From IMG/VR virus record IMGVR_UViG_3300010051_000510: a stretch of 64,000 nt of DNA. One strand, given 5' to 3'. Each line of letters begins with the position of its first letter. Position 1 is the first letter of the stretch. The notes beneath the pieces are model-generated. The model saw nothing but the letters and a program-made list of their open reading frames with translations. It did not search any database and had not been told where the DNA came from. The position numbers and the translations under genes were made by a program. Shown one piece after another: positions 2,732 through 60,981 of the stretch. Origin of the DNA: an uncultured virus (IMG/VR IMGVR_UViG_3300010051_000510) (Duplodnaviria > Heunggongvirae > Uroviricota > Caudoviricetes).

Positions 2732-3187
2732 GTGGGCCGGATCCGACGTATCACTGGCGGCTGGAAGATCGACGGGTCCCCGCTGGACGTGCATCGCAGC
2801 AACGGCGGCTGGGTGATCGACGTCGACCTCAACGAGGTCTTCTGCGGAGCCGGCGACGAGACACTGACCTGGAACGAACGCAATCAGCTGCAAGGCGTGT
2901 TGTTCGACACTCGCGCGCAGGCGGTGCGCGCCGCCGAGGCCGCATTGGCCGTCGACCCGCTCGCTGGCATGCGAGCCCAGAAGCTGATCCGCATGTCCGC
3001 CGGCCGGCATCGAAGCGAGGATGGCCGCTGGCTGATGCTCCGCGAACGCTCCGGCTGGGCCGTCTACGACACCCACCAGGAACGGTCCGGCGATCGCCGC
3101 CGGGCGGTTGTCGAATCGCTGTATGAGGCGGCGACTCTGATCGCCAGCACGCGGTTCGCTTCCCCGCCGGCCGCCGCCGGATCGTAG
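2732..3187 (+). CDS. Paralog family A protein
   Basis: GGWKIDGSPL..FDTRAQAVRAAEAALAVDPL..GRHRSEDGRW..SLYEA. TAGGTT-6nt-GTG. Confidence 0.8.
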   Translation: MGRIRRITGGWKIDGSPLDVHRSNGGWVIDVDLNEVFCGAGDETLTWNERNQLQGVLFDTRAQAVRAAEAALAVDPLAGMRAQKLIRMSAGRHRSEDGRWLMLRERSGWAVYDTHQERSGDRRRAVVESLYEAATLIASTRFASPPAAAGS

Positions 3188-3643: not shown

Positions 3644-4042
3644 TCAAGCGAGGGTGCGCGGGCGAGCCCAGTCTCGGCGCGCTCGGTCGAACGCGTCCCA
3701 GTCGACGCTGTCCCCGCCGGGGTCATCGGGCGTGGGTGTCGTGCGGTCGATGCCGCCGTCATCGTCATCGTCGGTGGGCCGGCGGGCGATCCACAATGCG
3801 CCGTTGGCGGCGATCGCCGCCGCGAGAACCAGCCAGCGCGCCGCCGGGCTGTGCGCGCACAACCCAACACCGGCGAGCACGGTCAGCGCGCCGAACAACG
3901 CGTACGCCGGCCAGGCGGGCCAGTCGTCGGGCGGAGGAGGAAACCACCAGGCGCAGATCATCGTCACGGTCCAGGCGCCCGCACCCGCGAGGATCGCCGG
4001 CAGCGCGGAAGCTGCGGTCGTCTGCGCCACAACGGCGGTCAT
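3644..4042 (-). CDS. Small membrane protein
   Basis: Three hydrophobic segments and an acidic tail (DDDDDGG..VDWDAFDRAR). TAGGTT-5nt-ATG. Confidence 0.7.
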   Translation of the reverse strand: MTAVVAQTTAASALPAILAGAGAWTVTMICAWWFPPPPDDWPAWPAYALFGALTVLAGVGLCAHSPAARWLVLAAAIAANGALWIARRPTDDDDDGGIDRTTPTPDDPGGDSVDWDAFDRARRDWARPRTLA

Positions 4043-17420: not shown

Positions 17421-18446
17421 ATGCGAAACGCTCTCGGCCTGCTGGCCGCTTTCCTTCTTCTTGCGTTCGCCGTCCCCGCGACGGGCATGGCGGCGTCAGG
17501 CATCATCATCGGTCCCAACGACATCTCCGCGGCGACCGCCTCACCGACGAACCTCGCGTTCCCCGCGACGATCGCGCAGCTCGGCTCCGGGTACGCGGCG
17601 GCCCAGCCGGGCACGATCACCAAGTGGCGGCTGAACAGCCCCAGCGGCGGCGGCCACGCCAAGCTCGTGGTGTTGCACCGGGCCGGCTGCGACTACCAGG
17701 TGGTCGGCGAGTCCGCGCCAGTGACACTCACCGCCGGCATCAACGATGTCAGCACCAGCGTGCACATCAACGCCGGCGACTACATCGGCGTGATCCTCGA
17801 CACGCTCACCCCGATCTACTACGACACGTCCACGTCGGGCAGCTACTACGCGGCGGACGTCCCGGCAGTCGGCGAGTCGGCGACGTTCGCGCCGGCGGGA
17901 GCGCTGTACCTGTTCAACGCCCTGATGACCCCTGACGGGTCGGCCCCTGACCCCGAACCGAACGCGACGCCCCAGCCGGCCGATCAGCCGGTGGTCATGA
18001 ACGCCCAGGTGACCACCACCGACGGCGAGCGGACGGCCAGCCCGGCGGCCGGCCCGCTGAGCGCCGGCGCCGCGTTCGGCCTGACCGGAGCGAACATGAA
18101 CCTCGCCGAGTCGGTCTATTTCAACAACGTCCCCGCCCGCACCTGGTGGATCGACGGGTTTGAGAAGCTGACGGTGGTCGTGCCCGCCGGGCTGCCTGAA
18201 GGGCCCGTGCAGGTCCGCGTCGGCGGCGTCGCCGGCGTGACCGAGGACACCCCCTCCACGACGGTCTTCATCACCCGCGACCGGCAGATCGCGCCGGTCG
18301 TGCAGGCCAGCCAGGCGCCGGTCGGGCGCAACGCCGGCACGTCCAAGCAGGCTCGCAAGGCCAAGACGGCCAAGCGGAACGCCAAGACCAAGCAGAACCG
18401 CACGGTCGCCCGTCTCGCCGACGGCGGCGTGCACGGCGCCTGCTGA
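17421..18446 (+). CDS. Secreted protein with IPT/TIG-like domain and basic tail
   Basis: Signal peptide. LTGANM..VYFNNVPA..LTVVVPA..GPVQV. K/R-rich C-terminus. Confidence 0.7.
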   Translation: MRNALGLLAAFLLLAFAVPATGMAASGIIIGPNDISAATASPTNLAFPATIAQLGSGYAAAQPGTITKWRLNSPSGGGHAKLVVLHRAGCDYQVVGESAPVTLTAGINDVSTSVHINAGDYIGVILDTLTPIYYDTSTSGSYYAADVPAVGESATFAPAGALYLFNALMTPDGSAPDPEPNATPQPADQPVVMNAQVTTTDGERTASPAAGPLSAGAAFGLTGANMNLAESVYFNNVPARTWWIDGFEKLTVVVPAGLPEGPVQVRVGGVAGVTEDTPSTTVFITRDRQIAPVVQASQAPVGRNAGTSKQARKAKTAKRNAKTKQNRTVARLADGGVHGAC

Positions 18447-18469
18447 CCTGCCGACGTCGATCATCACCC

Positions 18470-18500
18470 GAAGCCCGGCCGTCTCATCGCGCCGGGCTTC
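18470..18500 (+). terminator. Hairpin, putative terminator
   Basis: GAAGCCCGGC / GCCGGGCTTC inverted repeat just after the stop at 18446. Confidence 0.6.
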
Positions 18501-18553
18501 GCCGCTTCAGCGTGTCTGCGAGGGCCGCCGATGCGAGCGAGGTACGTTCAGTG

Positions 18554-19357
18554 ATGAGCGTGGATCCTTTCGGCCGCTTCGTGCGCACCCCCGCTGTCCG
18601 CCGCCGCTACGAGCAGACCATCGACGGGCTCGTACAGCTGCTCGCCGACTCCGAGGCGGTCACCGTCCTGTCCGGCGCGGGGATCAGCACCGCCTCCGGC
18701 TTGCAGGACTTCCGCAGCAAAGGCGGCCTGTGGGAGAACACCGACCCGATGCAGGAATGCTCGCTGTCGGCGTTCCGTCGCGACCCCGCCCGCTTCTGGG
18801 CCTTCTACACCGCCCGTCTCACCCTGCACGAGGACATCAAGCCCAACCCTGCGCATGAGGCGATCGTGCAGCTGGAACGCATGGGCAAGGTCAAATGGGT
18901 GCTGACGCAGAACATCGACGGGCTGCACCAGCAGGCGGGCAGCACCAGGGTCGTGGAGCTGCACGGCAGCCCCGCCACCGTCTCCTGCCCAGCCTGCGGC
19001 CAGAAGGTGACCTGGGATGAGGCGATGAGCATGCGCGACGACGCCGGAGTGGTGCGCTGCGAGCACGGGCATCCGATGAAACCTGACATCGTCCTGTTCG
19101 AGGAGCGCCTGCCCGACCAGCCGTTCCAGCGCGCGCATCTGGCGTTGGCGTCCAGCGATCTGCTGCTGTGCGTCGGAAGCAGCCTGGTCGTTCATCCGGT
19201 CGCCGGCCTGCCCGCGCTACTGATCGCCGGCGGCGGGGACGTCGCGATCCTCACCGGGTCAAGCACCCCGCAGGACCAGCTCGCCCAGGTCAAACTGACC
19301 GACCCGCCGTTGCAGGAGCTGCTGCCCGAAGCGGTCCGGCGACTCAACCTGCTCTGA
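18554..19357 (+). CDS. cobB: Sir2 family NAD-dependent deacylase
   Basis: GAGISTASGLQDFR, TQNIDGLH, ELHG, CxxC, KPDIVLFEE, GSSL. Start set by TACGTT-5nt-ATG. Confidence 0.93.
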   Translation: MSVDPFGRFVRTPAVRRRYEQTIDGLVQLLADSEAVTVLSGAGISTASGLQDFRSKGGLWENTDPMQECSLSAFRRDPARFWAFYTARLTLHEDIKPNPAHEAIVQLERMGKVKWVLTQNIDGLHQQAGSTRVVELHGSPATVSCPACGQKVTWDEAMSMRDDAGVVRCEHGHPMKPDIVLFEERLPDQPFQRAHLALASSDLLLCVGSSLVVHPVAGLPALLIAGGGDVAILTGSSTPQDQLAQVKLTDPPLQELLPEAVRRLNLL

Positions 19358-31058: not shown

Positions 31059-31084
31059 CCCGGCCTTGAACGGTAGGTTCAACG

Positions 31085-31672
31085 GTGAGCGGCGGCCTGT
31101 TCTACCTGCCTGACTGGGATGTCCCCGACGTCCTGATGTTCTACAGCCGCGGCCGCGGCGAACCGGCCTACCGCGACCTGTCGAACTTCGGAGCCGCCCG
31201 CGTCACCCTGCCGCTGCGTTTTGACCCGTCGGTCCTGTTCATCTACGAGGAGACCGAGACGCCCTTCCAGGACGGGAAGTCCTCGGATCTGGCCACCCAC
31301 GAGTTCATCTGCCAGCTGGATCTGCACCCCGGCCAGCGGACCGCTGCGGAGGCCAAACGCCGCGGCGCCAACCGCGTGAAGGTCAAACCGCCCGCGGACT
31401 GGGATCGGATCAGCCCGCTGTGGATGCTGTATCTGCAACGCGCGAAGTATCAGCTTCCCCGCTACCGGCAGCTGCTGCTGTCGACCGGCGATCGGGTGCT
31501 GGTGGAGAACAGCCCCTCAGATGCGCGCTGGGGCGGCTGGGACCGCCGCCGCGGCCGCTACTGCGGGCAGAACCTGCTCGGCCGAGCACTGATGCGAGTC
31601 CGAGCGGAGATCCGCGGCGACCTGCACCCGGTGCAGTTGCCGTTCGGGCCGTTGCCCGCCCAGGACGCCTAG
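31085..31672 (+). CDS. NADAR (YbiA/DUF1768) family protein
   Basis: FY..LSNF, EAKRRG, DWDRI, AKY, LLSTGDRVLVENSPSDARWG, GQNLLGRALMRVR. Confidence 0.9.
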   Translation: MSGGLFYLPDWDVPDVLMFYSRGRGEPAYRDLSNFGAARVTLPLRFDPSVLFIYEETETPFQDGKSSDLATHEFICQLDLHPGQRTAAEAKRRGANRVKVKPPADWDRISPLWMLYLQRAKYQLPRYRQLLLSTGDRVLVENSPSDARWGGWDRRRGRYCGQNLLGRALMRVRAEIRGDLHPVQLPFGPLPAQDA

Positions 31673-32116: not shown

Positions 32117-32800
32117 TCAGCGGGTGCGGCCTGCGCGTCTGACGACGCGCGCCTTCACGCGTTTGATGCAGGCGCGATGCTCCCGCTGGCTGTGGTTGAA
32201 GTAGCGGCAGCTGTAGCTGGCGGAGCGCTTGGCGGGGACGTTGCGCTTCACCGGCGCGACAGCCGCGGGCGGTTGCTGGACGACCGGCGGCTCAGGCGCG
32301 GCGACCGGCGGCTCAGCCATCAGCGTCGAAGGGGCGGGGGTGTCGCATTCGGCGGCCGGCGCCCGGTAGAACGGGGACATCACATCCGGCCCGTCAGCGC
32401 CATGCGGCTGGCCGGACAGATGCCCGTACTCGTGGATGAACACGGTGCAGAACTTCGGCCAGTCCCAGCGCTGCGCGGGGTTGAACACCACCGAGCAGGA
32501 GAAGTTCTGGGCGGGCGCGCCGTAGGGGTCGGTCGGATTAGCCCAGGAGGAACGAGCGTTGATGTTCGCCTCCTGCTCAGCCCAGCTGATCTCCACCTGC
32601 CCTGAGCATGGAGCGCCGCCCCAATGCGCCGCAGCCAGCTGCGCAGCGACGTTGAACTCCGGGGTGCCGGGCGCCCATCTGACCGCCGGGTCAGGCTCAA
32701 CCGCGGCCGCAGCGACAGCGGGCGTCGCCGCGGCGCAGATCAGGATGATCGCCAGCAGAGCAGGCAGCAGGGCGCGCAGGGATACGGGCAGCGAGAACAC
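32117..32800 (-). CDS. Secreted metzincin (matrixin-like) metallopeptidase
   Basis: Signal peptide. HEYGHLSGQPH (HExxHxxGxxH) and Met-turn VMSP. Confidence 0.85.
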   Translation of the reverse strand: MFSLPVSLRALLPALLAIILICAAATPAVAAAAVEPDPAVRWAPGTPEFNVAAQLAAAHWGGAPCSGQVEISWAEQEANINARSSWANPTDPYGAPAQNFSCSVVFNPAQRWDWPKFCTVFIHEYGHLSGQPHGADGPDVMSPFYRAPAAECDTPAPSTLMAEPPVAAPEPPVVQQPPAAVAPVKRNVPAKRSASYSCRYFNHSQREHRACIKRVKARVVRRAGRTR

Positions 32801-32912
32801 GGGCTGCTTTCAACATCACGCGTTCTCGCCGCCTGAAGCACGAACCTTCAGCACAAACTCCGGAAAGCTGCCCGACCGACGGTCCGGCTGCGCGCCGGGT
32901 TATGTTGTACGC

Positions 32913-33356
32913 ATGCCCCTGGAGATCCTGGACGACGGTGACCTGTTCGCGTTGGGCGCGCAGACGATCGTCAATCCGGTCAACTGTCAGGGCGTGATGG
33001 GCAAAGGCCTCGCGAAAGCGTTCTCCGACCGGTTCCCCGCGCATCTGGCCTGGTATCGTCAGCAGTGCGATCGCGGGCTGATCGTCCCCGGCCGTCCGCA
33101 GCTGGACCGCGGCCAGGACCCGTGGATCCTCGCGTTCCCCACCAAGGCAGCGTGGCGGCATCCCAGCCGGATCCAGGACATCGAAGCCGGGCTGCTGTCG
33201 GTGACACGCCGCATCCCCGGATCCGGGGTCACGTCGATCGCGTTCCCGGCGCTGGGCTGCGGACTGGGCGGGCTGCCGTGGCCGCAGGTGCGCGAGCTGA
33301 TGACCCGCTATCTCAGCCGGCTGGACCTGCCGGTGTGGGTGATCGCGCCGCGCTAG
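32913..33356 (+). CDS. Macro domain protein (DarG/Poa1p-like ADP-ribose hydrolase)
   Basis: GDLF..IVNPVNCQGVMGKGLA..FPTK..WR.PS..SIAFPALGCGLGGLPW. TATGTT-6nt-ATG. Confidence 0.9.
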   Translation: MPLEILDDGDLFALGAQTIVNPVNCQGVMGKGLAKAFSDRFPAHLAWYRQQCDRGLIVPGRPQLDRGQDPWILAFPTKAAWRHPSRIQDIEAGLLSVTRRIPGSGVTSIAFPALGCGLGGLPWPQVRELMTRYLSRLDLPVWVIAPR

Positions 33357-33524
33357 AACGCGGCGGCTCAACCAGCCAGGCCTCAGGCCGCGAGGCGGCG
33401 ATCGTCAGCGTGTTCCAGCCACTGCTGGGCGGTCATCGGATCCCCGCGCACCGCCGGACTGAACGCGCAGGAGCGCTCCGTCCGCGCGCTCGTCCGAGCA
33501 AGGCCGGCGGCGGTACGTTCAACG

Positions 33525-34085
33525 GTGACCGACCTCTCCCGCCGCGAGCTGACCGACTTGCTGACCGTGCACGGCTGCCCGCTGAGCCGATGGGGGCGGG
33601 GGCCGGCGAAGACGCTGGAGCATCTGCTGCGTGAGCTGGCCGACGGCGAATGCCGCCTGACGGTGCAGGACGGCACGCTTTACCGGGACGTGCTCGGCGC
33701 GATGCTGCGGGTCCGTCACCGCGACCTGACGTTGATCGAGGATCATCAGCGGTTCAGCGATGGGCGGCCAGACCCGGTCCGCCGGCGCGATCTGCAAGCG
33801 TCCGTGGGGGAGAAGCTGCAACGCGGCGAGGAGCCCGACGCGGGAGCGCGCCGCGCGCTCGCTGAGGAGCTGGGCGTCACCGAGCCGGTCGAGCTGCACG
33901 GCAAGCATCTGACCCGGAAGTTCGCCGAGTCCGAGAGCTACCCGGGGCTGATGACCCGCTTTGAGACATGGACCTATGAGGTGGAGCTGCCCGACAGCTG
34001 CTTTGACCCTGACGGCTACCGGGAAGTGCAGGCGGACAAGAGGACCGTGTGGGTGTGGGCGCCGACCGCCAGGGCGCCGTTCTAG
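33525..34085 (+). CDS. NUDIX-like protein
   Basis: VGEKLQRGEEPDAGARRALAEELGV, a variant Nudix box. TACGTT-5nt-GTG. Confidence 0.65.
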   Translation: MTDLSRRELTDLLTVHGCPLSRWGRGPAKTLEHLLRELADGECRLTVQDGTLYRDVLGAMLRVRHRDLTLIEDHQRFSDGRPDPVRRRDLQASVGEKLQRGEEPDAGARRALAEELGVTEPVELHGKHLTRKFAESESYPGLMTRFETWTYEVELPDSCFDPDGYREVQADKRTVWVWAPTARAPF

Positions 34086-35922: not shown

Positions 35923-36483
35923 ATGCGTCGCGACCCGGGTGTCAGCAATTTCGATTTCTTCACCAACGAGCTGAACGATGACCGCCACACGCTGCTGGAC
36001 GCCGCCGCGCCGAACCCGGCGCTGGTGTTCTTCGCGGTGCGCACACCCAGAGGTGTTGAGTGCTGGATGGCGCGATGCCGGTGGGATCGCTGGGGCGGCT
36101 ACCACTACTGGCTGACCAAGGAGTCCGAGAGCATCCACGAGATCAAGTGCCCCAAGCGGATCCTCGACCGGCTGGACCCGGTGGAGGATCTCTACGACGA
36201 CGGCACCCGCGCCGTCGCTCGGACGTTCCGGGAGCGCTGCACCAAGCGTCTGGCCGATCTCGCCGCCCAGCCGACGGTCAAACGCGGCGACCTCGTCCAT
36301 TTCAACCCGGCGATCAAGTTCCGCGGGGCGGGCGGTGTACGCGACGTGATGGAGTTCGTCCGCGGCGGCGAGTTCCGCGCCGGAGGCTGGCGGTTCTGGC
36401 TGCGCGGCGACTGGAAGCTGAACTACACCTGGTCGGTGATGGAGGACGTCAGCGACGAAGAGCGCAAGCTGCTGCTGTCATGA
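35923..36483 (+). CDS. Hypothetical protein (DUF6927-like)
   Basis: FFAVR..ESI..CPKRILDRLDP..ARTFRERC. GCGGA-TAACGT-6nt-ATG. Confidence 0.6.
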   Translation: MRRDPGVSNFDFFTNELNDDRHTLLDAAAPNPALVFFAVRTPRGVECWMARCRWDRWGGYHYWLTKESESIHEIKCPKRILDRLDPVEDLYDDGTRAVARTFRERCTKRLADLAAQPTVKRGDLVHFNPAIKFRGAGGVRDVMEFVRGGEFRAGGWRFWLRGDWKLNYTWSVMEDVSDEERKLLLS

Positions 36484-37865
36484 CCGACGTCGCCGCGCTG
36501 CTGGCCGCCGATCATGCCAGCCCTCCCGCTGACCCGCTGAGCGCGCATCGTGAGCTGTGGCCGCTGAACAGCCAGCTGGCCGAGACGTTCGACGACCCGC
36601 GCAGCGACCGGGTGCGCCTGCGCCGGGTCGTGAAGGCCGTCCGCGCCCACGGCATCAGCATCGGCGGCGTGGAGCCGTCCAACGCGGTCTCCGACCCCGT
36701 CGTGCAGATGCAGGGGCAGCTGGGCCGCTCAGGTGACTTGTGGAGCGGCAGCCTGACCGTGTCCGTCAGCCGCTGCGAAGGCGCCGAACTCGACCGTGTG
36801 CTGGCGGCCGTTCAGACCGCGTTGCAAGCGCACGGCTATCCCGCCTGCGTGACGATGAACCATCGGCTGGTCATCGCCGAGAGCGGCGGCCTGCCGGAAG
36901 CGGAGATCCGCTGGCTGGAAACCGGGTTCCTGCCCAGCACGGCGCCCATCGTGAAGCTCACGGCTGAGGAGGCCGCACAGTGGCGGATCGCCGGCGGAGA
37001 CGGGATGAGCGATCTGAAGCTGATCCATTACCTGCGCGGCGGGTTCACCGTGGAGCAAGCGACGCCGTGGCTGGAGGCCGGGTTCGCTGGTGACGTCGCC
37101 GAAGGCTGGCGGAACGCCGGGGTCACGATCGAGGAGGCCCTCGCATGGGTCAACGTTGAGATCCTGACCGCGGAGAAGGCCGCTGACCTGACCGCCGAAG
37201 GGATCACCATCGCCGATCTCGCGCCCTGGCGAACGTCCGGGAAGGATCGTTGGAGCGTGGTGCTTGACGCGCGGGTGCCGCAGCGATGGAAGGCCGCCGG
37301 GCTGACCGCCCGGGACGCTGCGGCGGCGATGACCGCCAACGAGCAGCGGGCGCTGGCCGCCGTGCAATGCTGCGGGCTGGTCGAGGACGGCAGCATGCGC
37401 CCAGAGGAGCTGAGCGACTGGCTGACGACGGGGCTGGAGCTGTCGGCGATCGTCGCCTGGCGGCGTTCAGGCGCGACCGCGCAGGAGGCCGCCGCCTGGC
37501 AGCAGCTGCCCAACAGCGGCATGCTCGCCAACCCTGACCGGGCCCGCCGGCTCACAGACAGCGGCCTGACCGTGCAGGAGATCGGCCGGTGGCTGGCGTT
37601 GGACCGGCGGTTCGCGCGCGTCGAGCTGATCGAAAGCTGGACGCGGCGGGGGATGGGTCCCCAGGACGCCGAAGGGTGGGTGCGAGCGCATCATGACCTG
37701 AACCTGCTCTCCCATCAGCATTCGCTGCTGGACGGCGACAACGTTCAGGCGTGGATGGACGCCCACCCCGCCTGCAAGAACCCCGAGGTGGTGCGGGAGC
37801 TGGCCAAGCTGCGGCTGACCCCCGAGAACGTCCCGCTGGTCGCAGACCTGCTGAACGTCCGCTGA
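36480..37865 (+). CDS. Helical repeat protein (A-x-x-W-x-x-x-G repeats)
   Basis: ATGA overlap with the upstream gene. Repeats such as QATPWLEAGF, AEGWRNAGV, QRWKAAGL, VAWRRSGA, ESWTRRGM. Confidence 0.75.
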   Translation: MTDVAALLAADHASPPADPLSAHRELWPLNSQLAETFDDPRSDRVRLRRVVKAVRAHGISIGGVEPSNAVSDPVVQMQGQLGRSGDLWSGSLTVSVSRCEGAELDRVLAAVQTALQAHGYPACVTMNHRLVIAESGGLPEAEIRWLETGFLPSTAPIVKLTAEEAAQWRIAGGDGMSDLKLIHYLRGGFTVEQATPWLEAGFAGDVAEGWRNAGVTIEEALAWVNVEILTAEKAADLTAEGITIADLAPWRTSGKDRWSVVLDARVPQRWKAAGLTARDAAAAMTANEQRALAAVQCCGLVEDGSMRPEELSDWLTTGLELSAIVAWRRSGATAQEAAAWQQLPNSGMLANPDRARRLTDSGLTVQEIGRWLALDRRFARVELIESWTRRGMGPQDAEGWVRAHHDLNLLSHQHSLLDGDNVQAWMDAHPACKNPEVVRELAKLRLTPENVPLVADLLNVR

Positions 37866-37977
37866 CCCGCCGCGGGCATTCTCGGGGGAGGCGACAGGTT
37901 TGCGCGACGTTGATTTGGTTGGTCGTGCGCTGCCGAACCCACCGCTGGCCGTGGCGCGCCTAACGTAGCGTTAGCGG

Positions 37978-39144
37978 GTGAGAGGCGCCCGTTGTCTGCT
38001 CGTGTCTGCTGTCTGCTGCGTCCTGCTCTGCTGCCTGGCCGCATCCGCACCAGCCGATGCTGCGTTCTCGGTTCCTCCGCAGGGAGCGTATGACCAGTGC
38101 CCGCCGACCCCGGATCTGGCGCGCTGCGCGGAGAACCTGAACAGGATCTCTCAGGCCGGCATGACCGTCATGCTGAACTACACCAGTTGGTATGCGACCC
38201 CGCAGGACCTGCTGGCGTACGCTGACGCCGCCCAGGCCGCCGGGGTGAAGCTGATCTGGCCGCTGAACGACAAGCCGTGGCGGGGGGAAGGCAGCCTGCT
38301 GGCCCGCTATCCGAAGCTCGCGCGCGTCTGCGGATGCGCGGACCTGCTCGCCTACGTCATCTCCCTGCTGAAGGACCATCCGGCCACCTACGGCTGGTAT
38401 GTCGGCGATGAGCAACCCGGCGACTACGCGCCGGCGATCGGGCATCTCGCCGCCGCCGTCAAGCAGTTGGACGCCACGCACCCGACGATCTTCGTGCAGC
38501 TGGGGTTGCGTGACCGGCCGGGCGGGAACCTCACCCCGTTCGCGTCGCTGGTCGACCTTCCCGGCGTGGACATCTACCCGGTCGGCACGAACTGGCCAGT
38601 CGGGCAGCTGGTCGGCGACGTCATGCGCGACGCGGCGGCGCAGACCCAAGCGGCCGGCAAACCGCTGCTGGCGGTGCTGCAATCGTTCAGCTGGCAGGCC
38701 TACCCCGACGAGGTCAGCGGTGTCCCTGACCCGCGCTTTCCGACCCGGCAGGAGATGATCGACATGCGCGACGCGGCGATCACCGTCGCGCAGCCGTCGC
38801 TGATCCTCTGGTACTCGCTGAACGATCTCGACGAGCTGGACCCCGACGGCAGCCACTTCGCCGATCTCGCCGCCGCCGTCGCTGCCCCATCGCCGGCCTT
38901 TCCGTCCCCGCCGCCCGCCGCGCAGCCGCCGACGCATGCCGCGCCCGTCAAGAAGCACCAGCGCTCTACGCGAGCCCGTTGCGCGCGCCTTCATCAGCCC
39001 AAACGGCGCCGCGCCTGCCGAGCGAAAGCTCGTCATGACCGCAGGCCGTCGCGGCGCGCAGCAGCCAAGCCCCGCCAGAGACTGGCCGGGCGGCCGCCGG
39101 CGATGATAGGTTCAGGTCACTATGGCTACCAAGGTCACGACTGA
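37978..39144 (+). CDS. Secreted glycoside hydrolase-like (TIM barrel) protein
   Basis: Signal peptide, HPATYGWYVGDEQP, GVDIYPV, LQSFSW. Basic Cys-containing tail. TAGCGT-6nt-GTG. Confidence 0.65.
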   Translation: MRGARCLLVSAVCCVLLCCLAASAPADAAFSVPPQGAYDQCPPTPDLARCAENLNRISQAGMTVMLNYTSWYATPQDLLAYADAAQAAGVKLIWPLNDKPWRGEGSLLARYPKLARVCGCADLLAYVISLLKDHPATYGWYVGDEQPGDYAPAIGHLAAAVKQLDATHPTIFVQLGLRDRPGGNLTPFASLVDLPGVDIYPVGTNWPVGQLVGDVMRDAAAQTQAAGKPLLAVLQSFSWQAYPDEVSGVPDPRFPTRQEMIDMRDAAITVAQPSLILWYSLNDLDELDPDGSHFADLAAAVAAPSPAFPSPPPAAQPPTHAAPVKKHQRSTRARCARLHQPKRRRACRAKARHDRRPSRRAAAKPRQRLAGRPPAMIGSGHYGYQGHD

Positions 39145-40082
39145 TGCCCGCGTCACCAACCGCGCTTTGACAGGACGTCTTTAGCGCCGTAGCCGCCTGC
39201 CCCGGCACGCCGGGGCTGCTGTCCGAAGCCGAGGAGTTGTGCGAACTTCGCCTGCTCGCTTCGGACGACCCGCAACTCCTCATCGAGCTGGACCAGGCCG
39301 AACGTGACCTGCTGACCCGCTGGGAGCAGAACTTGCTGAGCGGCGACCCCGCGTGGGAGGGAGACGCGATGTTGTGCGTGCGCGCCGGCGCCGGGGGCAC
39401 CGACGCTGAGGACTTCGCGCTCACCCTCATCTCCATGTACGAAAGCTACGCCCGCCGGCGACGGTGGAAGTTGGAAGAGCTGGAGCTGACCGCCGGCCGC
39501 GACAGCGGGGTGCGGTCCTGGACGGTCCGGGTGCGCGGGTACGGCGCCTACGGGCTGCTGGCGGGCGAGCACGGCTCCCATCGGGTCGCCCATCACTCCC
39601 GGTTCGGGGCTCGTGGGAAACGGCAGACCAGTCACGCCAGCGTCGAAGTGCTGCCCTGGCGCGATGAGCAGGCCGGTGTGATCGACGACACGGACGTGCG
39701 ACTGGACACCTACGCCGGCTCCTCCAAGGGCGGCCAGCACGCCAACAAGTCCCACACCAACGTGCGAGCGGTGCATGTGCCGTCGGGGATCAGCGCGGTC
39801 AGTCAAGGCCGGTCGTTGGAGCAGAATCGCCGCAACGCGCTCGCCGTCCTCCAGGCGCGGGTGATGGCGGCCGGCAAGGCGAAGGTGGCGGCGGGCCGCA
39901 GCGAGCAGACTGTCAGTGCCGGATTCGGCGGGCGGGTGCGCTCCTACGTGTTCACCCCGTATCAGATCGTCAGCGACGAGCGGGCGGGCGTGAAGACCCG
40001 CAAGCTGGCCAGCATCCTGGACGGGGATCTCGATCAGCTGACCAGGCCGCTGCTGGCCTGGCGGGCCAGGCAGGCCGCGTAA
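39122..40082 (+). CDS. prfB: Class I peptide chain release factor, RF2-like, expressed via a predicted +1 frameshift at CTT-TAG (about 319 aa)
   Basis: RAGAGGTDAEDF, GEHGSHR..SRF..RQTS, GGQHANK, RSYVFTPYQ.V.D.R, LDGDLD. ORF0 39122-39184 (20 aa, TAG) joins the +1 frame 39183-40082. Confidence 0.85.
39172..39185 (+). promoter_or_regulatory. prfB-type programmed +1 frameshift cassette with amber stop
   Basis: AGGA (SD-like) - CGT - CTT - TAG - C. Same geometry as canonical SD-NNN-CTT-TGA-C. Confidence 0.75.
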
Positions 40083-40147
40083 GCCGGTGCGGGAAGGGGA
40101 GGGCCGTCATCCGGGTGGCGGCCCTCCCGGGTGTCGGCGCCGCGCTG

Positions 40148-40831
40148 TCAGTTGATGGGGACGGTGCCTTGGACGCGGCGGGCGATCAGCTTCAGCTCGT
40201 TGTTCCATTGCCGCGCCCATTTCGCCTGACGTTTGCGCCGGCCCGTTTCGAGCTTCTGCAGTTGCTGGCCGACCAGGGCGATCTGCGGCTGGCGGCCTTC
40301 GCTGATCAGCTTCTCCACCCAGTCAGGCGGGGACATGTTCCCGCGGCGGCTGTTGCAGGCGCGGCAGGCGGCCAGCAGGTTGTCGGGATGATCGCCGCCG
40401 CCGCGGGAGCGGGGGACCAGATGCTCGAAGCTGGTCTCCGCGTGCTTGAGCCCAAGCTCGCGGCGGCACCAGACGCAACGGCCGTGGCTGCGTTCCAGCA
40501 ACGGCGCGAGCTTGGCCATGCGGAACATGGTCGGGTCGTTGAAGCGGATCGCCTCCTGCACGTTGTACAGCTCGCTCTTGGCGCGCGGCAGATCCAACGC
40601 GACCATCTGCTCCAGCCGGCTGACGATCAGTTCCTTGTCAGGGGTGCGCTCCGGGCGGTGCAGGCAGTCAGCCAGCCACGGGCCCGCGTGACTGGCGCCA
40701 CGCAACCCGCGGCAGGCCAGGCAGCATGCGATGACGTTCAGCGGATGGTCCAGCACTTTCTCCCCGGGCTTCGGGTAGATCAGCCAGCCGCTGACGACGC
40801 CGAGCGTATCTGAGCACCACACGCACTTCAC
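40148..40831 (-). CDS. Tandem HNH endonuclease (first copy degenerate)
   Basis: CVWC..NVIACCLAC, then CVWC..EHLVPRSRGG..NLLAACRACNSRRG. CAAGGT-6nt-GTG. Confidence 0.8.
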   Translation of the reverse strand: MKCVWCSDTLGVVSGWLIYPKPGEKVLDHPLNVIACCLACRGLRGASHAGPWLADCLHRPERTPDKELIVSRLEQMVALDLPRAKSELYNVQEAIRFNDPTMFRMAKLAPLLERSHGRCVWCRRELGLKHAETSFEHLVPRSRGGGDHPDNLLAACRACNSRRGNMSPPDWVEKLISEGRQPQIALVGQQLQKLETGRRKRQAKWARQWNNELKLIARRVQGTVPIN

Positions 40832-40921
40832 GGTGCAACCTTGCCGCAGCGCAGCCCGCTTGGACGGCGGTTGCGGCGATCCCGGCGCCGGAAACCTGCA
40901 GGTGAAGGGTAGGTTGACCGC

Positions 40922-41263
40922 GTGAGCTTGGAGTCTGACGCCGACAAGATGGAACGGACCGCTGACGAGCTGTTGCTGCTGGACCGCTGCCTGGACGCGA
41001 TGCGCGCCCTCGCCGACAACCCCAGTGAGGACAACGACTGGGAGTGCGTGCGCGCGTCGGATCTCAACGCGCTGCGTGACATCCTCGACGCGCACGACGG
41101 CGAGCAGCAGCCGGTGACCGTCGGTCAGCGCAACGGGTCGCTTCTGGACGCCCGGGAGATGATGGCCGCCGCCGACACAGCCATCGTCAGCGAACGCTAC
41201 GGCGACGCGGCCGCGCAGCTGCGCCGGGCAGCCCGGGCGTTGGATCGCGCCGCCCGCGCCTGA
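40922..41263 (+). CDS. Hypothetical protein
   Basis: TAGGTT-6nt-GTG. Confidence 0.65.
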   Translation: MSLESDADKMERTADELLLLDRCLDAMRALADNPSEDNDWECVRASDLNALRDILDAHDGEQQPVTVGQRNGSLLDAREMMAAADTAIVSERYGDAAAQLRRAARALDRAARA

Positions 41264-41303
41264 CCGCCACCCCCGCCGGCCGGGTTGCGGATACGTTGAC
41301 GGT

Positions 41304-41708
41304 ATGAGCACCAAGGGCCTGGCCACCGATCTGCGCAGCGACACCGGCGGGATCGTCTGGGGGCTGCGCGCGTTCGACGGCCCGAACATCATCGCCGCCA
41401 GCAGCAACGGGCGGCGGCTGTTCAGCCGCGACCACTGGGCTGCGCTTACGCCCGTCCCCGCCGGAGAGCATCACCTGTTCCCATACGCCACCGGCGCTGA
41501 GACGTCCAGCGCCGACCCGTCGCACCGGCGGACGAAGGATCTGCGCGTCGAGGTGCGCGAGCACACCAACCCGACGCTGCCGTCGGTCTGGCAGGTGCTT
41601 GTCGAGCATCCCGACCGCTGGCAGGACGCCGGTATGTTCGACAACGAGGACGACGCCGTCCAGGTCGCTGACCGGCTGCGCGCCGAACGCGCAGAAGGCG
41701 TCCTCTAA
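41304..41708 (+). CDS. Hypothetical protein
   Basis: GCGGA-TACGTT-6nt-ATG. Confidence 0.7.
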   Translation: MSTKGLATDLRSDTGGIVWGLRAFDGPNIIAASSNGRRLFSRDHWAALTPVPAGEHHLFPYATGAETSSADPSHRRTKDLRVEVREHTNPTLPSVWQVLVEHPDRWQDAGMFDNEDDAVQVADRLRAERAEGVL

Positions 41709-41728
41709 GAGCCCGCGACGCCCGGCGA

Positions 41729-42685
41729 ATGTTCGACCGAGCACGAAGCCCGCTCACCCGCCGAGACGACCGCGCCGATACCCGACGCATCAACCGCCGC
41801 GCCCGGACATCCCAACCGACGCGTCGCTGGCGCCGGCTCGCGCTCGTGCTCGGGGTGGCGTCTGTCGCCGCGGCCGCGACGCCCGGCCCCGCGCTCGCTG
41901 ACGACCCGCAGCTGGACCGTCAGGAACGCTGGGTGCTGGGAGCGATCAACGAGTACCGCGCCCAGGCGGGCGCCCCACCAGTGCAGTCATCCTCAACGCT
42001 CAGTCAGGTCGCCTCGCAGTACGCGCAGCTGATCGCTGACATGAACGTGCCGATCGGCCATGATCTCGACGGCACATCCACGACCCGCGCAGCCCGCGCC
42101 GACTGGGTGGGCCCGGCGGCGGAGATCATCGCTGATGCGCCCGCAAGCCGCGCCGCTCGTACCTGGTATCTCAGTGATCCCCATCGCGCGGCTATGCTCG
42201 GATCATGGCCGACAGTCGTGGGGCTGGGAAGCGACCGCGACCATCGATACTGGGTCGCGATGTTCAGCGACTGCACGCGGGTCAGCGCCGAGATCTGTGC
42301 CGCCACTGGCGACATCGGAGACGCCACCGGCGACATCCTCCGCTGGCAGGCAGAGGAAGCGATGCGCGACCTCCCGTCCGGCCCGCCTCCCGACCCCGCC
42401 GTCAAGACACCGCGCATGTCGATGCGGGCGCGTCTGCACGGCCGGACGATCACCGTGTCGGTCACCACCCCAGGAGCCGCCCAGGGAACCGTGAGGGCCG
42501 GCGTGACGACTGCGACCGCGAAGCGGCCGGCGCGCCGCGTGAAGACCAGTCGGCGCGGCGGGCAGGTCATCAGCACCTACCGGGTCCGCGCGCGCCTGCC
42601 GGGGCAGTACATGGTCTGGGCGTCCTTCACCGGGCGGGGCGGCTGGGGTGACCGGCAGCTGCAACGCTGGTACGACATCCGCTGA
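41729..42685 (+). CDS. Secreted CAP (SCP/PR-1) domain protein
   Basis: INEYRAQAG..L..VA..GHD..AEII..WYLSDPHRAAML..VGLG..YWV. Confidence 0.8.
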   Translation: MFDRARSPLTRRDDRADTRRINRRARTSQPTRRWRRLALVLGVASVAAAATPGPALADDPQLDRQERWVLGAINEYRAQAGAPPVQSSSTLSQVASQYAQLIADMNVPIGHDLDGTSTTRAARADWVGPAAEIIADAPASRAARTWYLSDPHRAAMLGSWPTVVGLGSDRDHRYWVAMFSDCTRVSAEICAATGDIGDATGDILRWQAEEAMRDLPSGPPPDPAVKTPRMSMRARLHGRTITVSVTTPGAAQGTVRAGVTTATAKRPARRVKTSRRGGQVISTYRVRARLPGQYMVWASFTGRGGWGDRQLQRWYDIR

Positions 42686-42704
42686 AGACCCCATGGGAAA
42701 CACG

Positions 42705-42728
42705 AAGCCCCGCGTTGCTGCGGGGCTT
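42705..42728. terminator. Hairpin between convergent genes
   Basis: AAGCCCCGC / GCGGGGCTT inverted repeat. Confidence 0.65.
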
Positions 42729-42760
42729 AGCGCTGTTGGGTTGTGGCTTGTTCTGGCTGG

Positions 42761-42916
42761 CTAGCGGCTCAGGTCCGCCACGTCTTTCTCCGGGGCTGTC
42801 TGCTCCCACTCTGCGGGAGTGCGCCCTTCCGACTGGGTGAGGTCGGGACGGTGGTGCTGTACCCGCCGCTGCCAGGACTCTGGGATGAGACGGGATATCA
42901 GAGGGGCCAGGTGCAT
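42761..42916 (-). CDS. Small protein (51 aa)
   Basis: SD AAGGAG upstream of ATG 42916. Followed by the hairpin. Confidence 0.5.
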   Translation of the reverse strand: MHLAPLISRLIPESWQRRVQHHRPDLTQSEGRTPAEWEQTAPEKDVADLSR

Positions 42917-43151
42917 GGTTTGAGATCTCTCCTTGACCTCGTGATGCCAGCCGCCCGCAACTTCCAAACCACAACTTCGGCTGCGGCTCGCGCTGCGAGT
43001 TCCCTGTACGCTCGCAAGCTGAGCAGGGCGTGGGCAGAATCAGGGTATGAGCGTCATCCATGAGCCTTGGGTGCTGATCTTCGCGCTCGTCGCGGTGATC
43101 GTCATCTACCAGTCGCTGATCAGCGAAAGCTGACACGGATAACGTGCTTGC

Positions 43152-43421
43152 ATGACACGCAAGCATTGGACTCCTGACGAGCAGGGGATGGTTCGGCTCA
43201 GCCGCTGCGGCGAGCCGGTGATGGTGTCGGTGAAGCGTCTGGACGCGATCGCCGCCGGGCACGTGACCCACGACTTCTACATGGAATGGGCGGCGGCGAA
43301 GGACCTGCCGCTAGATCCCAACTACTCCAGCCAGGGCGGCAAGACCGGCCAGGTCCGCACCCCCCGCAGGCGCTCCGCGCCGCCCGAGCCGGTCGCCGAC
43401 GCTCAGCTCGCGCTGATCTAG
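43152..43421 (+). CDS. Hypothetical protein
   Basis: CGGA-TAACGT-6nt-ATG. Confidence 0.65.
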   Translation: MTRKHWTPDEQGMVRLSRCGEPVMVSVKRLDAIAAGHVTHDFYMEWAAAKDLPLDPNYSSQGGKTGQVRTPRRRSAPPEPVADAQLALI

Positions 43422-43927
43422 CCGTCCGGGTCCTCGTCCGGCGACCACAGGCTGGCAGCCGAACGACGCGCCGTGATCAGGTTGCGATAGGGACCCCACG
43501 CACCGCCGGCGATCTCGATCATCCACCCGGCTTTGTCGCGGCGCAGCAGGCCGGGTCCGTCGAACGGCGCGCCGGGACAGTCGAACGCCCATCCGTCCGG
43601 GTGGCGTTCGATCGCGACCGGCTCAGGCAGCCACCCGTCTCCGCCGTCCAGGTCGACCGCGACGTCCAACGCTGCGAGCGCGTGCCGGCGCGACGGGAAC
43701 GCCGCATGAAGCAGACGGTGACGTCCCAACAGCCGCGCCGCCGCAGGGTCGTTGGCGATCAGCGCCCAGCCGTGATCGCCGGCGCCTTCGCTGCTGGCAT
43801 GGCCCCAGCGGCCGAGGTCGATGACGGTGATCTGCAACGGCACGCCGTCCCAGCAGATCGCCCAGCAGCCGGCGGTGGACTCGTCGAAGGTCCGGCGGAC
43901 CGTCAGCTTCCCGCTGATGGAAGGCAC
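43418..43927 (-). CDS. Paralog family A protein (divergent)
   Basis: WAICWDGVPL..GWAL..LLHAAFPSRRHALAALDVAV. TACGTT-5nt-GTG. Confidence 0.65.
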   Translation of the reverse strand: MPSISGKLTVRRTFDESTAGCWAICWDGVPLQITVIDLGRWGHASSEGAGDHGWALIANDPAAARLLGRHRLLHAAFPSRRHALAALDVAVDLDGGDGWLPEPVAIERHPDGWAFDCPGAPFDGPGLLRRDKAGWMIEIAGGAWGPYRNLITARRSAASLWSPDEDPDG

Positions 43928-43960
43928 ACATGAACGTACCCGCCGAGCGGGCGGGCGCGG

Positions 43961-44590
43961 TCAGAGGCGGGTGGCGGCGGCGAAGTCCGCGGCCGCATCC
44001 ACGTGCGTCTGCGGGACGTCATGGCGCTTCTTGAAGCGCTCGGCGATCTCCTTGGCGTCCAGGCCGGTGGCCAGGACCGCGTTCAGGAAGTCCTCGCCGG
44101 CGTCGATCATCCGCTCCAGCGCGTGGGCGGCCTGCTCGATCAGCTCATCCGCCGGGTCAGGCCCGGCCGGCGTCGCCGCGCCTGGGGTGAGCGGGATGGT
44201 GGTACCTCCGATGCTGATCGCTGTGGCGCCGGTTCCGCTGAGCAGGCTGCCGATCGCGCCGGTCAGGGACGCGGTCAGGGCCGATTCCTCAGCGGCGGCC
44301 GCGGCCTTGTCGGCGCGGCGGGCCTTGCGGACGTCAGCCTTGCTGTCGAACAGCTCCAGCGTGTAGCGGCCGTCGTTGCCGTCCAGGCAGAAGGTTCCGT
44401 CGTCCTCCTCTCTGACCTCCCATCGGCTGGCGAACCCGTCGATCCAGATCATGCCCTTGTCCAGGCGCAGGATGGTGGGCCCGTCGAACAGCACGTCGGT
44501 GCCGCCCTTGTAGTCCCAGCGCAGCTCGACGCGGCCGTACACCTTCGCGCCGTCCCCGCGGCGTCGCAGCTCCTTCGGTTGCAGTCTCAC
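43961..44590 (-). CDS. Hypothetical protein
   Basis: GTGA overlap with the upstream gene. Coding-like. Confidence 0.65.
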   Translation of the reverse strand: MRLQPKELRRRGDGAKVYGRVELRWDYKGGTDVLFDGPTILRLDKGMIWIDGFASRWEVREEDDGTFCLDGNDGRYTLELFDSKADVRKARRADKAAAAAEESALTASLTGAIGSLLSGTGATAISIGGTTIPLTPGAATPAGPDPADELIEQAAHALERMIDAGEDFLNAVLATGLDAKEIAERFKKRHDVPQTHVDAAADFAAATRL

Positions 44591-60334: not shown

Positions 60335-60981
60335 ACGAGGAGATCTTCGACGAGCTGACCGAGCAGGAGCTGCTGCTCGGGGTGATCGCCGCCGCCCGGC
60401 GCCTGCGCAACCCCAAGACCCGCTGGGTCAAAGGCGTGACCCGCCAGGAACGCTCCACCATCACGAAAGCCGCCGGCGCCGCGATCGCGAAGGCCGGCGC
60501 GCTGATCGCCCGAGACGCCGACGGCGAGGACATCTCCGATCAGGCGCTCACGCTCGCCCGCAGCGTCCTGGCGCTCACCACCGCCATGCACGCCCATGAG
60601 CAGGTCGCCGTTGAGGATCTGGCGAGACGGGTATGCGAGACCATCGACCGGGCCTCCGCGAAACCGACGGACCCGACGTCCGACACCGCCGTCCCGATGA
60701 TCCCCGTGACCCCGTCGATCCCCAAGGTCCCAACCATGCCGCTGCGTCCCTCGGTGGCGCCGCTGGCTCCCAGCGCACCGCCGAAGACGACGGGTGTCGG
60801 CGGCCCGTGGATCGGCGGGNNGACGCCGCGCTGGCCGCGGCCCAGCGGGCCGATCTGGCGCGATCACGGCACGATCTTCTCCTCGGCCGCCGCGCGCACC
60901 GGAACCGCCTACAACGCCTCCGGGGCAGCTTCGCTGGCCATGGTGTGCGCGCAGGAGCTGCTGGCGACATCCGCTCGGTAG
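60331..60981 (+). CDS. Hypothetical protein (contains NN at 60820-60821)
   Basis: TAGGTT-7nt-ATG. The frame past the ambiguous bases is uncertain. Confidence 0.6.
   Translation: MNEEIFDELTEQELLLGVIAAARRLRNPKTRWVKGVTRQERSTITKAAGAAIAKAGALIARDADGEDISDQALTLARSVLALTTAMHAHEQVAVEDLARRVCETIDRASAKPTDPTSDTAVPMIPVTPSIPKVPTMPLRPSVAPLAPSAPPKTTGVGGPWIGGXTPRWPRPSGPIWRDHGTIFSSAAARTGTAYNASGAASLAMVCAQELLATSAR

Follow-up and report, generated by a model that had tools for sequence, protein, structure and literature searches.

The closest described counterpart of the gene reported here is bacterial prfB, which encodes release factor 2 (RF2) and in which an autoregulatory +1 frameshift at a site of the form SD-N3-CUU-UGA-C (SD, Shine-Dalgarno-like element) links a short leader to a main open reading frame (ORF) without a start codon of its own. 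In the part of the survey by Prince, Lin and Feaga that tallies these motifs, none of 8,164 bacterial prfB motifs has TAG as its stop, and no motif is recorded in Actinomycetota (PMC12421855). We analysed a 64,000-nucleotide stretch of DNA from an uncultured virus of the Caudoviricetes (IMG/VR record IMGVR_UViG_3300010051_000510), referred to throughout as the window, and describe in it, at 39122-40082, a gene for an RF2-derived release factor whose leader is closed by CTT TAG C and whose reading head carries SRF in place of SPF. We consider it probable that a programmed +1 frameshift at this UAG makes the factor, with its synthesis inversely tied to UAG termination. According to the relevant passage of a review (PMC5009743), CUU next to UAG is an experimentally used and efficient +1 site in E. 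coli, which makes CUU_UAG a working +1 site in that organism, and release-factor genes with in-frame stops are given there as unknown in bacteria.

Other known systems resemble the window gene in part. PrfH (RFH), as presented in the sections of PMC6514570 available to us, likewise has an accessory role as an RF2/RF1-like paralog whose reading head is altered, and it has a record of horizontal spread. The class-I release factor gene of Mimivirus and Megavirus, in the passage devoted to it by Jeudy et al. (2012; PMC3521657), needs recoding at internal stops and is interpreted by its authors as a bacterial-type autoregulatory device; like the window gene it encodes a virus-borne termination factor and requires recoding for its own expression, but it is of the eRF1 (eukaryotic/archaeal) type, belongs to a eukaryotic virus and combines a frameshift with read-through, whereas the factor of the window is a bacterial RF2 derivative. 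Laboratory RF2 variants gaining UAG reading include E167K, E170K, E172K, K177R and R213I, with E172K and K177R raising UAG release 30-40 fold in the excerpt that reports these values (PMC7530605). In our literature search, neither a UAG cassette in a gene of the RF2 lineage nor frameshift gating of bacterial-type release factors in phages turned up as the subject of any paper.

The anatomy of the locus matches that of the E. coli prfB reference, read in the same way, element by element. Its features are the following.

39114..39117, plus strand: weak SD-like AGGT, 4 bases 5' of the leader ATG, read from the sequence
39122..39184, plus strand: leader ORF of 20 sense codons from its ATG, MATKVTTDARVTNRALTGRL, then TAG, from sequence and translation
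39172..39175, plus strand: internal SD-like AGGA, with the 3-base spacer CGT between it and CTT, from the sequence
39179..39185, plus strand: shift site CTT TAG C, comprising the slippery CUU_U, the amber stop and a C, from the sequence
39183..40082, plus strand: RF2-derived release factor body of 299 aa with its TAA stop, in the +1 frame, from domain matches and the structural model

The leader closes with ACA GGA CGT CTT (CTT 39179-81), TAG (39182-84) and C (39185), and a single +1 step at this point would join it to the body in a product of 319 aa. The +1 frame, hereafter the release-factor frame, is open from 39171 to the TAA at 40080-82 and is shut upstream by TGA at 39168-70; it contains no ATG, GTG or TTG between 39171 and 39236, the first such codon being TTG 39237. 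Our reading of the sequence agrees with an initial annotation of this DNA, which had called the ATG at 39122 with its 20 codons, the CTT and TAG, the AGGA 3 nt before CTT, and a +1 frame open to 40082, closed upstream by TGA 39168-70 and lacking a start before TTG 39237. Leader start codon, CUU_U, stop followed by C, and startless +1 body are all present, as is an SD-like element 3 bases before CUU, which reads AGGA-CGT-CTT in the window and in its close relative L001 and GGA-CGC-CTT in a more distant locus, L003. The arrangement thus shares with prfB a short leader (20 codons here, 25 in E. coli), the SD-like element 3 bases upstream, CUU_U, the C after the stop and a main ORF placed in the +1 frame without its own start, and its protein falls on the RF2 side. 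It differs from prfB in the stop itself (UAG), in carrying SRF rather than SPF within a remodelled loop, in scoring below the prfB cut-off, in an N-domain shorter by about 40 aa, and in being an element-borne extra copy. The heptamer CTTTAGC occurs once on the two strands of the window (0.95 expected), exactly at the frame junction, and the rare codons CTT, GGA and TTT used by the cassette amid a genome of about 88% GC3 (G+C at third codon positions) fit with a nucleotide signal. Folding of the region around the shift site (39100-39260) was no better than that of shuffled sequences (z-score -0.20). A hairpin, CCCCGG-CACG-CCGGGG, is present at 39200-39215, 15 bases past the shift site; in L001 two of its loop bases differ and the stem is kept.

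The cassette recurs beyond the window, and CTT-TAG-C was found at the homologous place in four of the five SRF-type loci with DNA (window, L001, L003 and L075), which bears on the co-occurrence of cassette and SRF that the initial annotation had proposed to test. Since the window and L001 are close kin, these four loci represent three independent lineages. The four loci other than the window compare with it as follows.

L001, 91% protein identity to the window: identical leader and cassette; the AGGT before the leader ATG is lost
L003, 50% identity: contig begins ...TCC GGA CGC CTT TAG C, with the release factor next in the +1 frame
L075, on a Miltoncostaea oceani plasmid, 41% identity: ATG, 24 codons ending GGG CGC TGC CTT TAG C, body in the +1 frame
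L002, 54% identity: without the cassette; in-frame TGA C

Although the proteins of the window and L003 are only 50% identical, 12 of 13 bases are the same over GGACGYCTTTAGC. L075 (gene at position 3827 of the locus) is from NZ_CP064357.1, a plasmid of 816 kb in Miltoncostaea oceani SCSIO 61214, an actinomycete available in culture. On this plasmid the gene adjoins parB, is near parA and is the sole gene with a release-factor domain. It is annotated as a 'PCRF domain-containing protein' (loop HRVSHLSRFGQQGKRQTS), and its leader ATG is preceded by CAGGTG, similar to the AGGT of the window. Its RefSeq start is a CTG directly after a TGA in that frame, with records of 334, 290 and 223 aa; this annotation misses the ATG leader and the +1 site, the annotators having found no normal start.

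The frame break itself is reproduced in contigs of separate sequencing runs. Those of run X1 (39093-39717), which may be the source sample, and of run X2 (39169-39493) equal the window without change, while a contig of run X3, about 88% alike and covering 38977-39569, has 73 substitutions and 4 indels, every indel lying upstream of 39083. The presence of the break in contigs of three studies and in independent loci argues against an assembly error, and the 1-nt error raised as a possibility in the initial annotation is contradicted by the lack of any indel at the site. L001 is syntenic with the window at 87-90% DNA identity, and over leader and cassette (39122-39185) 2 of 64 bases differ between the two, whereas immediately upstream 29 of 82 do. 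In the stretch that starts at 39183 and runs up to the first ATG in the release-factor frame (39183-39368), synonymous and non-synonymous differences stand at 10:7 in the release-factor frame and at 5:12 and 2:16 in the other two, with 10 of 19 differences at third codon positions; TTG 39237 of the window is CTG in L001. This coding-type change from 39183 on, together with the lack of conservation of TTG 39237, indicates that the release-factor frame is entered at or near 39183 and not at the TTG, so that a start at TTG 39237, also considered in the initial annotation, is unlikely, the stretch upstream of it being coding-like in the release-factor frame. Cassette anatomy, its conservation and the need for recoding are direct observations.

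By the precedent of prfB, ribosomes would initiate at ATG 39122, read 20 codons and come to a pause once CUU occupies the P site and UAG the A site. Quick recognition of UAG would release the 20-residue peptide; on slow recognition, the peptidyl-tRNA(Leu) would re-pair from CUU to UUU, aided by the AGGA three bases upstream, and translation of the +1 frame would then yield the 319-aa factor. As the slip competes with UAG termination, output should fall as UAG termination capacity rises, this capacity consisting of host RF1 and, if the factor itself reads UAG, of the factor as well. We infer both the slip and its dependence on UAG termination from prfB, and the suggestion of the initial annotation that synthesis senses UAG termination would follow from the same known mechanism.

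The protein carries the PCRF domain (PF03462; 105.3 bits, cut-off 24; 4.7e-30) and the RF-1 domain (PF00472; 71.1 bits, cut-off 35; 9.8e-20), both above their Pfam cut-offs, which with the GGQ motif identify it as a bacterial class-I release factor. Among the NCBIfam models, prfB (TIGR00020) scores best of the three families at 229.8 bits, below its cut-off of 370; prfA reaches 179.3 and 174.7 bits, below cut-offs of 400 and 423, and with SRF rather than PxT the protein does not qualify as RF1; prfH reaches 72.1 bits, below its cut-off of 166.65. Besides this low score, the factor differs from PrfH in having kept a helical N-domain, and a scan of 91 ORFs of the window gave no RtcB; we know of no recoding gate in prfH. 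The best sequence matches are solved RF2 chains, to whose SPF the SRF is aligned, and the two functional motifs are placed as follows.

39597..39605, plus strand: SRF tripeptide, codons TCC CGG TTC, within the HRVAHHSRFG reading loop, from the alignment
39729..39737, plus strand: GGQ catalytic motif in the unusual context SSKGGQHAN, from sequence and alignment

The reading loop HRVAHHSRFG stands against HRLVRxSPF in ordinary RF2, and about 66 residues separate the shift site from the GxGG motif, compared with about 105 for a full-length domain 1, leaving the N-domain about 40 aa shorter. An AlphaFold (AF2) model built on 14 family sequences (mean pLDDT 84.4) has the release-factor core with an N-domain of two helices only, and its top fold matches are the free RF2 structures 1gqe and 2ihr. 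In a quick maximum-likelihood tree of 86 rows, in which the SPF set was 40 proteins drawn at random from those of the 223 that have at least 300 aa, the RF1/RF2 split is supported at 99* and the SRF family falls on the RF2 side as one clade (SH-aLRT 94, from the quick search and not starred), nested in a looser RF2-like group with odd tripeptides (SRF, SDF, STF, SPY, SPR). Pfam, NCBIfam, alignment and model all bear out the earlier call of an RF2-type release factor of about 319 aa with GGQ, SRF for SPF and a short N-domain, and the tree provides the comparison with RF1 and RF2 that the initial annotation had called for. The gene product is an accessory, RF2-derived class-I release factor, an extra copy and not the RF2 of the cell.

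Database searches returned a small family (P0003-P0015) with 46-92% identity, all members having HHSRFG..GKRQTS-like loops and SSKGGQHAN, and all 13 core-family products of gene callers are either N-truncated or begin inside the N-domain. Searches of 185,579 species genomes (one genome per species) gave no family member, the matches being Hyphomicrobiales RF1 and other non-family proteins; IMG/VR, searched by alignment and with a degenerate HHSRFG...GKRQT pattern, likewise gave none, and in a protein search of phage and plasmid collections the M. oceani plasmid was the one exception among matches that were otherwise canonical or unrelated release factors with less than 42% identity. Residues of 14 family members were compared with those of 223 SPF-type RF2 proteins, in E. 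coli numbering taken from prfB, and the changes are these.

Glu172 to Arg: 12 of 14 family members
Lys177 to Arg: 14 of 14
Val202 to Ala: 13 of 14 (Gln in one)
Arg203 to His: 14 of 14
Pro206 to Arg: 14 of 14, where all 223 SPF-type RF2 have Pro
Position 208 to Gly: 14 of 14
Gly248 to Ser: 14 of 14, where all 223 SPF-type RF2 have Gly
Val254 to Ala: 14 of 14

GGQ is invariant (14/14), and Ser205, Phe207, Arg213 (14/14) and Thr215 are unchanged, as is an acidic residue, Glu or Asp, at 167; Gln at 214 is no mark of the family, being present in 158 of the 223 ordinary RF2 proteins too. In the structural literature, roles in base recognition are ascribed to Val202, the residue at 203 and the Ser and Phe of the tripeptide. 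The family shares with the laboratory variants the positions of two changes, with Arg at 172 (12/14) and at 177 (14/14), and differs from them, as far as the excerpted account of PMC7530605 goes, in that 167 and Arg213 are unchanged and in that only the natural family has changes in the loop itself.

Further release-factor genes with a stop at a putative recoding site (the gate) came from IMG/VR, where 47 loci with release-factor relatives were retrieved and 31 inspected, counting in L004 and L005 from a separate search. The gated loci among the comparators are listed by type.

SPF-type RF2 (L030, L044): CTT TGA C
SPY-type RF2-like with Gln at 202 (L032, 854-913): 19-codon leader ending CTT TAG A
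Short RF1-type with QRVPPTE loops, 223-246 aa (L047, L048, L049, L052, L060): CTT TGA
Short RF1-type (L053, 2970-3017; L056; L058, 2943-2967): CTT TAG C
Short RF1-type (L055, 2985-2999): CTT TAA C

L032, on an 86-kb contig of 29% GC, is a candidate second, unrelated RF2 variant with an amber gate, and the remaining viral RF2 genes inspected mostly have normal starts. Among RF2-derived genes, a TAG gate is paired with a non-SPF head in all 5 cases and a TGA gate with SPF in 2 of 2, whereas in the short RF1-type family the gate codon is unlinked to the head. These short RF1-type (PPT) factors of huge phages (L047-L060) resemble the window gene as phage-borne release-factor homologs with an N-terminal stop gate, which is CTT TAG C in three; they differ in their RF1-like loop, the absence of domain 1, their mid-GC contigs and their interchangeable TGA, TAG and TAA, and are only 28-34% identical to the RF2-variant query alignment that retrieved them. 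We found no paper in the literature on short RF1-type phage factors with CTT-stop cassettes.

It is quite conceivable, though short of probable, that the window factor has been re-specified or broadened to read UAG, a refinement of the frameshift reading in which the change of the cassette from UGA to UAG would keep true autoregulation and the element would both supply and self-limit UAG termination. The prfB motifs of the survey carry TGA in 98.6% and TAA in 1.4% of cases and never TAG, in the portion giving these counts (PMC12421855), and among the RF2-derived genes of our sample TAG gates accompany only non-SPF heads, namely SRF (window, L001, L003, L075) and SPY with Gln202 (L032), both SPF-type phage genes (L030, L044) having CTT TGA C. 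All 14 members have a loop remodelled on its third-base side (positions 202, 203 and 206), and the changes of Glu172 (12/14) and Lys177 (14/14) to Arg fall at the positions of the lab-evolved E172K and K177R of the excerpt cited above (PMC7530605). Set against these points, Ser205 and Phe207 are kept, as is in 14 of 14 members Arg213, given in the same excerpt as the discriminator against a third-position G, while the short RF1-type phage gates, with CTT TGA at five loci, CTT TAG at three and CTT TAA at one, indicate that a gate codon need not be cognate to its head; moreover, L002 is gated by TGA, and the sample is small, with the window and L001 not independent. With slightly greater reserve, we suggest an RF2 lineage whose reading head may have been switched or broadened to UAG and whose autoregulatory stop changed alongside from UGA to UAG, sensor and decoder having co-evolved; on jumbo phages and megaplasmids of hosts with high GC and many TGA stops, the factor would serve as a self-limiting source of amber termination for the TAG-ending genes of the element itself.

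A more doubtful alternative is that the factor keeps an RF2-type (UGA/UAA) or codon-independent activity and that the amber gate reports on host RF1, the factor being made when RF1 is scarce or disabled, or else that the gate is just adjusted to a stop which a TGA-rich host reads weakly. The retention of Ser205, Phe207 and Arg213 and the non-cognate gates of the short RF1-type phage family are consistent with such cross-sensing, which however does not account for the remodelling of the loop in every member. Actinomycetota are heavy users of RF2-specific stops, according to the passages on stop usage in PMC12421855, and the window has RNA-repair and NAD/ADP-ribose genes (RNA ligase, Sir2, Macro, NADAR, NUDIX) of a class linked to ribosome rescue in the available part of PMC9503650; yet neither RtcB nor another repair gene adjoins the factor gene, the distance to the RNA ligase is 38 kb, and the prfH score of 72 bits stays under the cut-off of 166.

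Several observations weigh against a frameshift at UAG. AGGA or GGA makes a weak SD-like element, and the GGG that is its counterpart in M. oceani sits 6 bases from CTT and not 3; L001 has no AGGT ahead of its leader ATG; the L003 contig starts within the leader with the release-factor frame open to the contig edge, so that its visible sequence needs no shift; and P0013 (300 aa), whose starting Met is only some 6 residues ahead of the first conserved helix, is possibly a member without a gate. In L002 (2926-3003) the release-factor frame has an ATG, 7-10 codons and an in-frame TGA C, directly followed by the conserved region of the N-terminal helix; no standard start codon intervenes between that TGA and the conserved region. 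This arrangement could represent an alternative gate working by read-through, or a copy in decay. Of the initial annotation's concern that homologs might be continuous or carry TGA, one part held: L001, L003 and L075 keep CTT-TAG-C, but L002 does not and has the in-frame TGA, which we read as an alternative gate and not as a refutation of the cassette. A further sequence in L002, CCG TGA G (2997-3003), leads into the release-factor frame and was considered as a +1 site; it was rejected as non-slippery. The window also offers a second possible route, in the release-factor frame itself.

39144..39171, plus strand: second short ORF in the release-factor frame, with ATG 39144, 8 codons and CTT TGA C (39165-71), from the sequence; identical in L001 and comparable to the 7-codon ORF of L002

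The CTT TGA C of this ORF is the exact prfB heptamer, 14 bases ahead of CTT TAG C; a +1 shift there would dead-end after 7 codons at TAG 39190, whereas read-through would yield the factor, and the ORF could be a read-through route, a relic or a chance occurrence. The window holds 8 copies of CTTTGAC where 3.2 are expected, and none of the other 7 links two coding-type frames.

It is improbable, though worth stating, that no frameshift takes place, the factor being made from a non-standard start (CTG or TTG 39237) or by UGA read-through after the ATG 39144 mini-ORF, with CTT-TAG-C left as a relic. The CTG start given by RefSeq in M. oceani would fit such a route, but TTG 39237 is not conserved and no ATG, GTG or TTG lies between 39171 and 39236. 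The in-frame TGA arrangement is the only one in L002, and the window and L001 carry ATG, 8 codons and CTT TGA C in the release-factor frame; the ATG 39144 route, however, is without an SD-like element before its CTT and its +1 product stops after 7 codons, and a relic would neither retain 12 of 13 bases (GGACGYCTTTAGC) between genes 50% identical in protein nor turn up again in M. oceani behind a full leader of 24 codons. That the gene is broken or the break a sequencing artefact can be dismissed as extremely improbable, for although one extra base is the whole separation of the two frames, the same break is found in contigs of three studies, in L001, in L003 and in the finished plasmid of a pure culture, purifying selection is seen on both sides of the shift site, and every catalytic motif is intact.

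A programmed +1 frameshift at UAG thus remains our preferred reading, and the setting of the gene agrees with the earlier description of it as element-borne, since it lies on a phage-like or mobile element. The window has 69% GC, and the following genes are among those it carries.

4-1500: RNA ligase
18200-19354: Sir2
31070-31669: NADAR
32526-33353: Macro
33357-34082: NUDIX

Together, these five make up a gene set of the kind described for large phages in the portion of PMC9503650 at hand, which discusses NAD/ADP-ribose and RNA-repair phage functions as ribosome rescue and RNA repair. Other window genes encode an ATP-dependent DNA ligase, ClpS, Fic, a LOG-like protein, a MoxR ATPase with a DUF2201 protein and two HNH-domain proteins, and many ORFs are without any match. 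Two window proteins have their best relatives, at 40-49% identity, in jumbo phages of 300-485 kb; no structural genes were found in the window, and 36001-44000 gave no DNA match to the phage collection. The window is likely part of a jumbo phage or other large mobile element, and the SRF family looks to be borne on large mobile elements of high-GC bacteria, a jumbo-phage-like contig here and an actinomycete megaplasmid elsewhere.

A crude count over 90 closed ORFs with coding-type GC3 gave 26 TAG, 57 TGA and 7 TAA stops, compared with the roughly 20 TAG-ending genes of the initial annotation; 91 ORFs were listed, one running off the window end, and some of them, which overlap one another, are possibly spurious. 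The possibility that a stop codon is reassigned in the window found no support: ORFs with domain matches are intact, and same-frame continuation follows TGA and TAA too and not TAG alone, late and structural genes lying outside the window. A tRNA scan of the window, in which a suppressor tRNA was sought, gave no genes. A scan of 38700-40300 gave one minus-strand promoter-like match and no terminator-like match. Between the release-factor stop and the convergent HNH endonuclease gene lies a 9-bp GC-rich inverted repeat, GGGAGGGCC ... GGCCCTCCC (40097-40128), likely a two-way terminator without a T-run. The same interval is a variable region, L001 (2966-4052) having about 1.1 kb extra between its release-factor and HNH genes relative to 40058-40135 of the window. 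Two N bases are present at 60820-60821.

If the reading head has been re-aimed, the SRF family would be a natural and new example of a re-specified release factor, useful for the study of stop-codon recognition and for code engineering; if the gate serves cross-sensing, it would be the first RF2-lineage gene wired to sense another factor, RF1, which would be equally new. The presence of a member in the cultured strain Miltoncostaea oceani SCSIO 61214 makes the question testable at the bench. On either account, large phages and plasmids would bring their own regulated termination factors into hosts, the Actinomycetota, whose prfB has no such switch.

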